From Candidatus Aenigmatarchaeota archaeon (GTDB lineage: Archaea > Aenigmatarchaeota > Aenigmatarchaeia > QMZP01 > QMZT01), in contig JAGGYQ010000074.1 of NCBI GenBank assembly GCA_021162425.1, positions 1-35,447 on the forward strand: 35,447 bases of DNA. Direction: 5' to 3'. Each line of letters begins with the position of its first letter. Positions within the stretch are counted from its first letter, which is position 1. Position numbers and translations under genes: made by a program. A model generated the notes under the pieces. That model was not told the DNA's origin. It saw only the letters and a list, made by a program, of their open reading frames with translations, and searched no databases. This document shows positions 15,217-18,169 of the stretch, piece after piece.

Positions 15217-17112
15217 TCAGCCTATGAACACAGGACGTTTTGTTATGAGTTTTGGTAATGACAGTGGTATGAATGGTTTATCCTTTGTCAAATCTTTCAC
15301 ATATTTTATCACATCTTCTGCGTTCATCTTTTTGACTTCACCTGTCTCCCTGAACCTCACAGCCAAAACGCCTTCATTAATCTCCCTTTCGCCCACAACC
15401 ACTATTAAAGGAACCCATTCAGTCTCTGCATCCCTTATCTTTTTCTGTACAGTTTCGTTTCTGTCGTCCACATCAACCCTTATGTTATGTTTTTCAATCT
15501 CCTCTGAAATCTTCGCAGCATCTTCGACGAATTTCTCTGAAACAGGTATTATTCTTATCTGTGTCGGGCTCAACCACATTGGGAACACAGGGTTTTTTCC
15601 TTGCTGCGACTCCATGTATGCCTTTTCAAGCAACGCATACATAACCCTTTCTATGCTTCCTGAAGGTGAGAGGTGAAGGATTATTGGATGCTTTCTCTTG
15701 TTGTCTTTGTCTGTGAAGTATATGCCATATCTCTCGCTGTTTTCCACGTCTATCTGATCAGTAGCCAAACAAGCAGCTTTGTCAAGCGCGTCTACAAAAT
15801 TCCACTCCATTTTGAACACGAAATAGAAAAATCTTTCCGACCACATTTCTACCAGAATGGGTTTATCCATGAGTTTTACCATTTCATGAACAAATTTTTT
15901 GTTCTTCTCGTAGAAATCCTTGACTATCCTCACCGAGAATTCTATATCCTTTTTAATGTCAAAACCAATACCTTCCTCGACTTCTTTTGCCAGCTGGAAT
16001 CTTCGTTTGATCTCCTCTTTTGCCTGTTCAATGTTCGCGCATAATGCGTGACAATCAGGCATGGTGAACGCTCTGAGCCTTCTTAATCCTGCAAGCTCAC
16101 CTCTCTGCTCAACTCTGAATGAATATCTTGTTAATTCATATATTCTCAGAGGAAGGTTTCTATACGATATGCTCGCATCTTTTGCTATTAAGAATTGCCC
16201 AAAACATGCCGCAAACCTCAGGAATACATGTTTATTCGGTGTTTCTATTACGTACTGCCTTGCTGGGAATCTGTTCAGATACTTTTTGAGTGTTGGGTGA
16301 TCTAAATCGTACATTATAGGTGTTTCCACCTCCATAGCTCCATATTCTATTGTCTTCTTCGTGACAAACCGTTCGAGCAAACTTTTGATAAGTCTACCTT
16401 TTGGTAAAAATCTGAAATGACCTGGATCGCTTGCAGGTTCGTAATCGACAAGTTCAAGCCTTTTCATGAGTTTTATATGTGGAGGCTCTTTGGTTACGAG
16501 TCTGTTTTTTGTTATTTCATATTTGACAAGTTTTTCAAGTCTTTCATTCCCTTTAAAATCAAACCCGTGAATCTTCCCATCTTTCATCTCAATTTTATGT
16601 GCGTTACCATCTGGTGTGAGTATATACCATTCAGATTTCAATGTTTTCTCTTTCTTCAACGCCTCTGAAACATTCTCTTTTTTTGCTTCACCTTCGGGTG
16701 TTATCTCCCTTGAAAGTTCAGATAAAGGATGACCTTTGACTTTTATGTTGAACGCCTTATACCAACCAAACGGCGCTCTATATACCTCATATCCCTTTTC
16801 CTTTAAAATTCTTTCAACGTTTTTCAGGACTTTCAGGGCAACATCAGGTTTTGAAGGTTTTTGTGATAGATGAACATATGGATATATCACTATTGTTTTT
16901 GCCTTGACCTCATCATATACATCAAGAATTTCTTTAACAGTTTTATCAACAAGATTTTTTGTATTCTTCTCATCCCCCTTTTCAACAGAAGAGAAAACAA
17001 CCAAGGCCTCTTCAGCTTTGTAAATTTTCTTTTCTATTTCTTCTGCCTGCTTTATGGCTTTTTTCTTCGGTTCCCATTCTATGAAGTCCGAATGTAACAG
17101 CAGGATTTTCAT
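15217..17112 (-). CDS. thrS: Threonyl-tRNA synthetase, archaeal type with N-terminal editing domain
   Basis: MKILLLHSDF, YPYVHLS, APFGWYKAF..KGHPLSELSR editing domain; FAACFGQF, RAFTMPDCH, SGSIER; anticodon-binding domain. Confidence 0.97.
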   Translation of the reverse strand: MKILLLHSDFIEWEPKKKAIKQAEEIEKKIYKAEEALVVFSSVEKGDEKNTKNLVDKTVKEILDVYDEVKAKTIVIYPYVHLSQKPSKPDVALKVLKNVERILKEKGYEVYRAPFGWYKAFNIKVKGHPLSELSREITPEGEAKKENVSEALKKEKTLKSEWYILTPDGNAHKIEMKDGKIHGFDFKGNERLEKLVKYEITKNRLVTKEPPHIKLMKRLELVDYEPASDPGHFRFLPKGRLIKSLLERFVTKKTIEYGAMEVETPIMYDLDHPTLKKYLNRFPARQYVIETPNKHVFLRFAACFGQFLIAKDASISYRNLPLRIYELTRYSFRVEQRGELAGLRRLRAFTMPDCHALCANIEQAKEEIKRRFQLAKEVEEGIGFDIKKDIEFSVRIVKDFYEKNKKFVHEMVKLMDKPILVEMWSERFFYFVFKMEWNFVDALDKAACLATDQIDVENSERYGIYFTDKDNKRKHPIILHLSPSGSIERVMYALLEKAYMESQQGKNPVFPMWLSPTQIRIIPVSEKFVEDAAKISEEIEKHNIRVDVDDRNETVQKKIRDAETEWVPLIVVVGEREINEGVLAVRFRETGEVKKMNAEDVIKYVKDLTKDKPFIPLSLPKLITKRPVFIG

Positions 17113-17117
17113 ATTAT

Positions 17118-17123
17118 CCCTCC
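17118..17123 (-). promoter_or_regulatory. Shine-Dalgarno of thrS (GGAGGG)
   Basis: AAAGGAGGGATAATATG on the minus strand. Confidence 0.75.
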
Positions 17124-17149
17124 TTTATTTCATCTTTGACATCGTGCTT

Positions 17150-17237
17150 AAATAAACTCACGGCTGGCCGGTTGTCATCCAGAAGAAGTCAGACCCGGCC
17201 ATAGACCACTGACTAAGCGAGCTTCGTCGTCGTGGTC
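17150..17237 (-). promoter_or_regulatory. Attenuator-like RNA leader with mutually exclusive helices
   Basis: GACCACGAC (17237-17229) pairs with GUCAGUGGUC (17213-17204); AGUCAG (17214-17209) pairs with CUGACU (17192-17187); UGGCCGG (17201-17195) pairs with CCGGCCA (17171-17165); UUUAUUU at 17156-17150. Confidence 0.7.
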
Positions 17238-17257
17238 GTCGTGAAGCCGGAGTTCAT
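17213..17257 (-). CDS. Thr-rich leader peptide MNSGFTTTTTTKLA upstream of thrS
   Basis: ATG AAC TCC GGC TTC ACG ACG ACC ACG ACG ACG AAG CTC GCT TAG; six consecutive Thr codons; stop is 100 nt upstream of thrS. Confidence 0.85.
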   Translation of the reverse strand: MNSGFTTTTTTKLA

Positions 17258-17278
17258 AAAAGTAAATTTGATTTATAA

Positions 17279-17293
17279 TTTAAATTTATTTCG
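17279..17293 (-). promoter_or_regulatory. Putative BRE-TATA promoter for the leader-thrS transcript
   Basis: CGAAATAAA-TTTAAA with the TATA element at -27..-22 from the leader ATG, matching leaderless spacing. Confidence 0.55.
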
Positions 17294-17302
17294 TGTACAA
17301 TT

Positions 17303-18169
17303 TCATGAATTATTAAATCCCTTCAAAAATTCATACACACATAAAGGAATCTTTTCTATGCTATAACCTCCTTCGAGAACCGCGAACCTTGGTTTGTCAA
17401 GCTCTGCTATAATCTTCCCTATCTTCTCATATGTTTTTACTTTTAGATTAAGTGAAGTAAGCGGATCACCTTCATATGTATCGAAACCCGCGGACACAGC
17501 GATTAAATCAGGGTCAAATTCCCTTATTTTATCGATACCGACCAATAGTTTCTCTATGTACTCTTTTTCATCTGTTCCTGCCGGCAAAGGGAAATTATAT
17601 GCGTTCTTTTCTGAATGCCTACCTGTGCCAGGATATATGAATCCATATTGATGTAAGGATACGTAAATCACATGAGGATCACCCATAAATATTTCCTGTG
17701 TACCCTGTCCGTGATGGGCATCTATATCGAGGATAGCAATCTTTTTAACAGTTGTCAAAGCCTTTGTAACTGCAATTGCAATGTTATTGAAATAGCAGAA
17801 GCCCTCGAACTTGTTTTGCGAGGCATGATGTCCGGGAGGTCTCATCAGCGAGAATGCTCTACCTTCATTTAAAGCGGTCTTCATGGCAAGAACCGCTCCC
17901 CCCGCAGAAAGCCTTGCATAGTAGTATATATTTGGGATGTTTGGTGTCTCCGAATCTTCGAAATCCCCATGTTTTATTGTGTCTACAAGCGTGTTGGAGT
18001 GAACCATCAATAAATCCTGCCTTGAGCAGGGCTTTGGCTCCAGAAATTTAAAATATTTGAACATCTTCAGAAATTCGTAGACTTTTCGGACTCTTTCACT
18101 CGATTCTGGATGGCCGGGTGAATCATATTCGAGACATTGCCTTGAAAAAATAATTTTTAATGGTTTCAT
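17303..18169 (-). CDS. Histone deacetylase / acetoin utilization family Zn hydrolase
   Basis: HPESSER, RPPGHHA, GFCYFNNIAIA, DIDAHHGQGT, SAGFD, LEGGY. Confidence 0.95.
   Translation of the reverse strand: MKPLKIIFSRQCLEYDSPGHPESSERVRKVYEFLKMFKYFKFLEPKPCSRQDLLMVHSNTLVDTIKHGDFEDSETPNIPNIYYYARLSAGGAVLAMKTALNEGRAFSLMRPPGHHASQNKFEGFCYFNNIAIAVTKALTTVKKIAILDIDAHHGQGTQEIFMGDPHVIYVSLHQYGFIYPGTGRHSEKNAYNFPLPAGTDEKEYIEKLLVGIDKIREFDPDLIAVSAGFDTYEGDPLTSLNLKVKTYEKIGKIIAELDKPRFAVLEGGYSIEKIPLCVYEFLKGFNNS

Follow-up and report, generated by a model that had tools for sequence, protein, structure and literature searches.

Why does a run of six threonine codons, in a very short open reading frame (ORF), stand directly in front of the gene for threonyl-tRNA synthetase (ThrRS) in an archaeon? 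The question is raised by thrS of a Candidatus Aenigmatarchaeota archaeon (GenBank assembly GCA_021162425.1), which lies on the minus strand of contig JAGGYQ010000074.1 in the stretch of 35,447 nucleotides (nt) analyzed here, hereafter the window. The original prediction for this DNA was that a Thr-rich ORF in a GC-rich patch 100 nt before thrS lets the ribosome sense Thr-tRNA and thereby controls ThrRS. The ORF is present as described, with 6 Thr codons among 14: ATG (17257-17255) is followed by AAC TCC GGC TTC, by the Thr run, by AAG CTC GCT, and by TAG (17215-17213), and exactly 100 nt (17212-17113) separate the stop codon from the thrS ATG at 17112. The GC content is 0.53-0.55 over 17140-17259 compared with 0.15-0.30 immediately upstream. 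We hypothesize that the 145 nt before thrS act as a leaderless, cis-acting attenuator in which the ribosome senses Thr-tRNA, and we would give this reading a probability of roughly 0.7. The support for such control of ThrRS from a leaderless upstream ORF is comparative, namely the conservation of the element, the match between leader codons and downstream gene, and the spacing of the promoter.

Conservation of the leader among relatives

By sequence comparison, the leader element is conserved in relatives within the order (Aenigmatarchaeota, DPANN). Lack of conservation had been named beforehand as one result that would refute the original prediction, and both the element and its run of Thr codons were found to be kept. 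The thrS loci were drawn from 40 relatives, and 400 nt upstream were read in 28 of them. Ten of these upstream regions, that of the window included, carried the ORF with conserved flanks, three had it deleted, five (one sister family) had a different hairpin, and ten had neither. A covariance model built from the ten leaders (R1) matched 13 of the 23 genomes of the family and 18 of the 91 genomes of the order (E <= 0.01). A second model (R2), built from 19 of the R1 matches, matched 24 of the 91 genomes at E <= 0.1, a figure in which the training rows of R2 are found again and only six genomes are new. The element occurred once per genome (twice in G015), with a single match in the genome of the window. 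In the 24 matched genomes it preceded thrS (18 genomes), aspartokinase (3), or asd, the gene of aspartate-semialdehyde dehydrogenase (2), and in one it was a remnant without a start codon.

No copy of the element was found beyond the order, either with the scaffold pattern in 371 genomes of the phylum or at 80 thrS loci from many archaeal lineages. The pattern was present in 4 of the 371 genomes, all previously found, and its reversed control in 0; the 80 loci comprised 5 with a leader ORF (peptides identical to known ones), 4 with unrelated matches, and 71 with none. In metagenomes, the same pattern gave 12 loci, of which four were genuine copies of known variants and eight were due to chance. 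Within the order, the leader also stands before thrS genes whose product has a catalytic part just 28-31% identical to that of the window, so that two ThrRS architectures are represented. In G006, G009, G011, G012, G014, G016, and others, the N-terminal editing domain of ThrRS is 61-67% identical and the catalytic part in the same open frame 28-31%, which suggests a replaced catalytic core. The leader was retained before such divergent-core genes in G006, G009, G012, and G014.

Several relatives have lost or rearranged the region. In L010, L012, and L016 the promoter and the distal leader are retained and the stretch from the ATG to the P3 hairpin is gone, while L019 has the scaffold with two Thr codons only; these four loci look like natural loss-of-attenuator variants. 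At L133 (1642-2799), a 386-residue ORF with a LAGLIDADG domain begins at the expected thrS start right after the leader, with ThrRS-like sequence resuming behind it, and may be an intein or a homing-endonuclease insertion. A Cys-rich ORF of 68 residues without a Pfam match lies between the leader and thrS at L014 (3390-3593); its stop codon overlaps the thrS ATG (ATGA), which makes a unit of two genes with the leader at its head. About 400 nt separate leader and thrS at L044.

Codon content of the leader ORFs

In 18 distinct thrS leaders, Thr accounted for 120 of 261 codons (ACG 43, ACA 39, ACC 23, ACT 15), compared with 0-3 in each of the other two reading frames. The ORFs have 9-21 codons; the length of the Thr run varies and every insertion or deletion keeps the frame, as in the peptides MNSGFTTGTTTTFR, MNSGRTTTTTTFC, MNSGKTTTKTTTTTTTTC, MYPGAMTTTTTGSC, MFTSTTTTGTTGSC, and MMHPTTTTTTTRLC. 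The non-Thr residues and the peptide length are free to vary. The use of all four synonymous codons, the kept frame, and the varying run together point to selection on the codons and not on the RNA alone. Moreover, helix P2 (see below) holds only about three Thr codons, so that pairing cannot account for runs of 8-11 codons. The leader of the window uses ACG five times, ACC once, and ACA not at all, although ACA makes up 0.51 of the Thr codons of its genome (ACG 0.19, ACC 0.17, ACT 0.13). The stop codon is TAG in 17 of the 18 thrS leaders, and this is the rarest stop in the genome of the window (143 of 900); it is embedded in a conserved UUAGUC motif.

That the ORF is read as a sensor is argued most strongly by the switch of its codons with the downstream gene on a common scaffold. 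Leaders of this kind were assigned to aspartokinase at L051, L135, L157, L158, L159, and L050 and to asd at L024 and L136. Three of the aspartokinase genes are further close orthologs that the RNA model missed and a protein search of the order recovered, with the leaders MMCPSVARMKKTKRF, MRTSSMHKTKKTMGY, and MEFPAMMTEKAKRTYC. Such an ORF was present in all five close aspartokinase orthologs with assembled upstream DNA and in none of five distant paralogs. The eight distinct aspartokinase and asd leaders contain, in 121 codons, 22 Thr, 23 Lys (all AAG), and 16 internal Met codons, with runs such as MTKKTK. All three amino acids are end products of the aspartate pathway. The predicted leader peptides thus match the downstream gene in their codon content, with Thr for thrS and with Thr, Lys, and Met for aspartokinase and asd. 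At L136 the leader heads the asd gene, and an aspartokinase-like gene follows directly after.

RNA fold and conservation of the helices

The 106-nt core of the leader (17257-17152) was predicted to fold with -42.9 kcal/mol, compared with -30.1 +/- 3.4 kcal/mol for 200 dinucleotide shuffles, none of which was as stable (z = -3.77). The z-score fell to -1.7 once the unstructured flanks were folded along with the core. The minimum-energy fold is a three-way junction of the helices P1, P2, and P3 (Table 1), with one bulged U in P1. Of the helices that had been drawn in the original prediction, the pairing of the Thr codons with the stop region (GACCACGAC with GUC-A-GUGGUC, called 1:2) belongs to this fold as P2, and the 7-bp stem UGGCCGG/CCGGCCA (called 3:4), which is followed 8 nt later by UUUAUUU, is P3. 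The helix set was therefore right for P2 and P3 and incomplete, since P1, the dominant conserved helix, had been overlooked.

P1 is the outermost and, across the aligned leaders, the best-conserved of the predicted helices. In a MAFFT alignment of ten leaders, P1 and P3 were recovered by RNAalifold with compensatory changes at 8 of 21 pairs. In the model-fitted alignment of 19 leaders, 89% of the cells were paired compared with 76% in shuffled alignments and two-sided changes occurred at 14 of 21 pairs, counts which overstate the case because the alignment was fitted to the structure model and the sequences are related. None of 500 shuffles matched the values observed for these 19 leaders, and sliding the partners by 1-3 columns reduced the pairing to 25-43%.

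The specificity of P1 was assessed independently by pairing the 5' region of each leader with the 32 nt that follow P3 in each of the leaders, which replaced a mononucleotide-shuffle duplex test on an 80-nt target window that had too little power. None of the 13 non-self partners was better than the self partner for the P1 of the window. The self partner was likewise the best in L006, L014, L020, L028, L051, L135, and L136, and the P1 sequences of these self-best leaders differ from one another (AACUCCGGCU/AGCCGUGAGUU, UACCCC/GGGGUA, GCAUCCC/GGGAUGC, CAGUGAUG/CAUCACUG). The loops of P2 and P3 differ in sequence and length among relatives, and no 7-nt NGU loop is kept. The P3 loops are pyrimidine-rich in nearly all leaders (CUUCUUCU in the window, 17166-17201; UUCUUU, UUUUC, or CCUCCU elsewhere) and otherwise free in sequence; they could present an anti-Shine-Dalgarno-like motif or a U/C-rich motif for protein binding.

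Proposed mechanism and its alternatives

The promoter of the leader is recognizable in all ten loci read, with 21-23 nt from the TATA hexamer to the ATG in each, a GAAA motif before the TATA box, and no Shine-Dalgarno site before the leader ORF. In the window the corresponding CGAAA is presumably a transcription factor B recognition element (BRE), judged by the BRE consensus. In archaeal promoters the TATA box is centered about 26 nt before the transcription start. Taken together with this rule, the BRE/TATA geometry implies that the thrS leader transcript starts at or beside the AUG of the ORF, i.e., that it is leaderless or near-leaderless. The deletion variants L010, L012, and L016 keep this promoter, and the aspartokinase leaders L051 and L135 have no second TATA-like tract, which argues that the leader promoter serves the downstream gene.

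We propose the following course of events. Transcription would begin at or beside the AUG of the 14-codon ORF, as suggested by the promoter geometry, and a ribosome would load at the 5' end before RNA polymerase has left the leader. With plentiful charged tRNA-Thr, this ribosome would cross the six Thr codons, reach the UAG, and depart. The junction of P1, P2, and P3, a predicted and conserved fold, could then close, which would be the OFF state. When Thr-tRNA is scarce, the ribosome would stall at a Thr codon in the A site and cover the 5' strands of P1 and P2 with its footprint, so that the junction would stay open and thrS would be ON. The footprint of a ribosome was assumed to be about -12 to +15 nt. 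In a stall model in which 30 nt were masked with the A site on the first Thr codon, P1 and P2 were removed from the thermodynamic fold. Comparing strand positions with peptides, the 5' strand of P1, where P1 is clear, sits just upstream of the first regulatory codon, which is the trailing half of the stalled ribosome under the assumed footprint. A ribosome at the stop codon covers the 3' strand of P2 and has its front at about the start of P3, 12 nt past the stop in the leader of the window.

The OFF state would most likely be executed at the A/U tract after P1, where a 3' end would form prematurely, whether by an intrinsic mechanism or with the help of aCPSF1/FttA. This tract, UUUAUUUAA in the window and UUUAAUUAAU in the family, directly adjoins P1, which gives the closed junction the look of a branched terminator. 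According to a cross-domain termination review (PMC13675443), aCPSF1/FttA recognizes U-rich RNA and strengthens weak signals, and an ortholog is encoded in the genome of the window (893 bits, cut-off 580). An output at the level of translation or RNA stability is almost as likely.

A number of observations weigh against the proposed attenuator or its output, in addition to the fitted alignment and the few new genomes mentioned above. The A/U tract after P1 is weak, as had been stated in the original prediction, and several subfamilies (L006, L133, L134, L135) have no U's after P1. T runs are not enriched after genes in the genome of the window, which makes the terminator signals of the lineage hard to define. 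P1 was weak or unspecific in 6 of 23 leaders (L044, L045, L048, L024, L134, L138). In equilibrium folds of the stalled state P3 stays and the 3' strand of P1 finds other partners, so that the contrast between ON and OFF is less clear than in textbook attenuators. The element must be dispensable, since it is degenerate (L019) or deleted in some close relatives. Furthermore, TTTAATTAAT could be a second, basal promoter in the thrS family. The public sequencing runs that contain this DNA are hydrothermal-vent metagenomes, with no RNA run among them, and the archaeon itself is uncultured.

The alternative that survives best keeps the same sensor and differs in the output: the ribosome-free fold would hide the ribosome-binding site or mark the RNA for cleavage. 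As a complete account this is possible at well below even odds. At L136 (asd), the 3' strand of P1 contains the GAGGAG Shine-Dalgarno site of the gene, and in five aspartokinase leaders RNAalifold pairs the invariant UCCUCCCC (also given as UUCCUCCCCAG) with the Shine-Dalgarno region, although the covariation term of this consensus is unfavourable (+1.04). The subfamilies without U tracts after P1 would also be accommodated, and leaderless poly-Cys ORFs of mycobacteria offer a reported precedent (10.1101/834739). On the other hand, the thrS Shine-Dalgarno site of the window lies 29 nt beyond P1 and is free in every predicted state, and in 21 leaders no partner that would hide the Shine-Dalgarno region was found at a consistent place (z -1.0 to +1.3).

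The classical wiring with four segments, which the original prediction had favored, is an unlikely description of this leader. Here the Thr codons pair with the stop region (1:2); upon stalling, segment 2 would pair with the 5' half of P3 (segment 3), and otherwise 3:4 would terminate transcription before UUUAUUU. The 2:3 helix (AGUCAG/CUGACU with the inner UGGUC/GGCCG) can indeed form: leader nt 44-85, taken by themselves, fold best in this way (-10.1 kcal/mol), and a similar hairpin, with at least 8 nt of the post-stop segment paired, was predicted in 6 of 12 family-type leaders (that of the window, L020, L023, L028, L040, and L041). P3 begins 7-17 nt past the stop codon, at about the front of a terminating ribosome, which would also fit. 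However, the 2:3 fold does not stand out from shuffles (z of about -0.4 in the window, -1.8 to +1.7 overall) and is weaker than both P3 (-15.1 kcal/mol) and P2 (-13.5 kcal/mol). It is also unconserved, the CUGACU hexamer being missing from the P3 loops of most relatives, and among the leaders compared no alternative helix was found that is conserved or better than shuffles. Moreover, P3 stands 8 nt from the U tract, and the best-conserved helix, P1, would be left without a role.

It is very improbable that the element is a small gene in its own right, for a structured RNA or a Thr-rich peptide, which merely neighbors thrS and has no part in its regulation. In favor of this reading, a promoter and a possible 3' signal belong to the element itself, TTTAATTAAT could serve thrS as a separate promoter, and the P3 loop of the window carries CUGA and GAUGA as K-turn RNAs do. 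Against this stand the linkage to thrS in 18 genomes with two ThrRS architectures, the codon content that switches with the downstream gene, and the free variation of peptide length and non-Thr residues. CUGA and GAUGA are missing in relatives and there is no Rfam match, and at L051 and L135 the gene could be read from the leader promoter only, as the TATA-like tract is absent. Least probable of all is a ThrRS-binding operator that mimics tRNA-Thr and represses its own mRNA as in E. coli, with the ORF incidental: an anticodon-arm-like hairpin 10-17 nt before thrS in 10 of 14 genomes of a sister family makes mimicry plausible in the order, but the switch of codons on a scaffold shared with aspartokinase and asd excludes a ThrRS-specific operator, no 7-nt NGU loop is kept in the unconserved P2 and P3 loops, and protein binding would not explain synonymous variation in an intact frame.

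Features of the locus and its genome

The features of the thrS leader, together with the aspartokinase and asd leaders that share its scaffold, are collected in Table 1. The product of thrS is an archaeal-type ThrRS of 631 amino acids with an archaea-specific editing domain, a class II core, and an anticodon-binding domain (Pfam PF08915, PF00587, PF03129). Its upstream neighbor (18169..17303) belongs to the histone-deacetylase family, and the spacer to thrS is 190 nt.

Table 1. Positions of the thrS leader features in the window, and leaders of aspartate-pathway genes on the same scaffold
Feature	Position or locus	Strand	Basis and remarks
BRE-like CGAAA, leader promoter	17289..17293	-	read from sequence; GAAA before TATA box in relatives too
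TATA box TTTAAA, 21 nt before ATG of leader ORF	17279..17284	-	sequence and comparison of 10 loci
Leader ORF MNSGFTTTTTTKLA*, 14 codons and TAG	17213..17257	-	in-frame conservation, 18 distinct thrS leaders
Six Thr codons (ACG ACG ACC ACG ACG ACG), proposed sensing codons	17225..17242	-	sequence
P1 5' strand AUGAACUCCGGCU, leader nt 1-13, start codon included	17245..17257	-	minimum-energy fold, covariation
P2 5' strand GACCACGAC, nt 21-29, within Thr run (segment 1 of the original prediction)	17229..17237	-	minimum-energy fold
P2 3' strand, nt 45-54, last stop-codon base G and UCAGUGGUC	17204..17213	-	fold; motif UUAGUC..UGGUC conserved
P3 hairpin UGGCCGG ... CCGGCCA, nt 57-93, pyrimidine-rich loop	17165..17201	-	fold, covariation; starts 12 nt past stop codon
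P1 3' strand AGCCGUGAGUUUAU, nt 93-106	17152..17165	-	fold, self versus non-self pairing
A/U-rich tract UUUAUUUAA (DNA TTTATTTAA; relatives TTTAATTAA)	17148..17156	-	candidate 3'-end signal or possible internal TATA box; not kept in all subfamilies
Shine-Dalgarno GGAGGG of thrS	17118..17123	-	unpaired in every predicted state
thrS	15217..17112	-	ORF and Pfam domains
Aspartokinase leaders MSMPTVMMTKKTKLML / MTVPCSIMTKKTKLFML / MHSATMTTKKTGKSY	L051 / L135 / L050		AA_kinase and ACT domains; NCBIfam aspartate kinase
asd leaders MMSQGMTTKKTKTFY / MSSCAMTATKKK	L024 / L136		covariance-model match

The genome of the window comprises 0.95 Mb in 75 contigs with 40% GC. Among its 15026 ATG-initiated ORFs of 6-30 codons, 7 have a run of at least 5 identical residues, and in 2 of these the residue is Thr. 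The other Thr-run ORF, on contig C70, was considered as a second leader and rejected, as it sits out of frame within an ORF of 591 amino acids. In a search of the same genome for other cognate-codon leaders, covering 463 short ORFs upstream of 927 crudely called genes, 16 passed the composition filter and the thrS leader was the sole Thr-rich one; the remainder were biased towards I, F, L, K, S, G, or Y, as is typical of AT-rich DNA. A repeat or mobile element was dismissed, since BLAST and the covariance model each give one copy in this genome. ARAGORN found 14 tRNA genes in it, many of them with introns, and no tRNA-Thr gene among them, so anticodon arms could not be compared with the leader.

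At gathering thresholds, the sole Rfam match in the whole window is a tRNA. At E <= 10 over 17000-17420 there were just two matches, snoRNA ceN59 and U4, both at chance level, and neither Thr_leader nor T-box was among them. A C/D-box or H/ACA guide RNA or a K-turn was also considered, on account of the CUGA and GAUGA in the P3 loop of the window, and was rejected because relatives lack both in their P3 loops and Rfam gave no match.

A different hairpin before thrS in a sister family

The thrS loci L169-L178 of the sister family f6 have no leader ORF. They carry a hairpin whose stem has 6 bp and whose 7-nt loop, NNUGUAA, resembles the anticodon arm of tRNA-Thr(UGU); its sequence is GCAGCC-GCUGUAA-GGCUGC or a variant of this, and one compensatory change was seen. 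The hairpin lies 10-17 nt before the thrS ATG (14 nt at L169), its 3' flank runs into the Shine-Dalgarno site, and a second GGUAA or UGUAA motif occurs just 5' of the stem. It was found at thrS in each of the 10 genomes of this family (of 14) that have it; the four other matches within the order lie away from thrS. By analogy, the hairpin resembles the thrS operator of E. coli and would be unreported for Archaea too.

Significance and comparison with known systems

Leader-peptide attenuation is a textbook bacterial mechanism that needs a ribosome close behind RNA polymerase. A full-text literature search returned no archaeal leader-peptide attenuator, which is not proof of absence, as most subscription journals lie outside its coverage. 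The string "attenuat" does not occur in a 2026 cross-domain termination review (PMC13675443). We consider it somewhat more probable than the contrary that Aenigmatarchaeota possess their own family of ribosome-sensed attenuators, made of leaderless ORFs tuned to the downstream gene and set in a junction that closes over the start codon. It would be the first amino-acid-specific, translation-coupled case in Archaea, would have evolved independently of bacteria, and may act through 3'-end formation assisted by aCPSF1/FttA and not through an intrinsic terminator. If so, the leader would directly attest a regulatory use of transcription-translation coupling in Archaea. The response of archaeal termination factors to the state of the ribosome could be studied with it on a defined substrate, and it would be a compact sensor of tRNA charging. 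Despite their reduced genomes and their reliance on others for amino acids, DPANN cells would then be seen to adjust both tRNA charging and the aspartate pathway by cis-acting RNA devices. Feedback on thrS would have been solved in two ways within one order, by an ORF with a codon run in some families and by an anticodon-like hairpin in another.

The T-box leaders of thrS in Firmicutes work without an ORF, by direct binding of uncharged tRNA. The proposed attenuator would share with them the sensing of tRNA-Thr charging and the control of thrS by attenuation; it differs in having an ORF and in giving no Rfam T-box match. In E. coli, thrS is controlled by a translational operator, in which a mimic of the tRNA-Thr anticodon arm beside the Shine-Dalgarno site is bound by ThrRS. 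Here the same gene would likewise be subject to feedback linked to tRNA-Thr through the 5' leader, but the element of the window has no conserved anticodon-like loop near the Shine-Dalgarno site, unlike the hairpin of the sister family. Self-regulation of ThrRS is mentioned in PMC2965389.

A closer parallel in design is found in mycobacteria, where leaderless sensory poly-Cys ORFs place consecutive cognate codons at the head of the transcript, as described by Canestrari et al. (10.1101/834739). As in the leaders described here, several loci of one pathway share the design, and a stalled ribosome is reported to block an RNA structure, as we propose for the thrS leader (10.1101/834739). The mycobacterial systems differ in being bacterial and in sensing Cys; moreover, the thrS Shine-Dalgarno site of the window is unpaired in all predicted states, L136 being a possible exception among the leaders.

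The bacterial counterparts in the narrower sense are the transcription attenuators of E. coli with leader peptides, thrL before thrABC and pheM before pheST. Unlike these, the present leader is archaeal, has a BRE/TATA promoter, and has an apparently leaderless ORF without a Shine-Dalgarno site. Its predicted fold is a three-way junction in which the start codon is part of the closing helix, in place of the 1:2, 2:3, and 3:4 set, and lacks a clear antiterminator and a proper U run. The likeness lies in a 5' leader that contains a short ORF, in a run of codons within this ORF that match the regulated gene, in the placing of the regulatory codons within one strand of a hairpin, and in a GC-rich structure ahead of an A/U-rich tract. 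It extends to the related leaders of aspartokinase, which carry codons for several end products, just as thrL carries both Thr and Ile codons.

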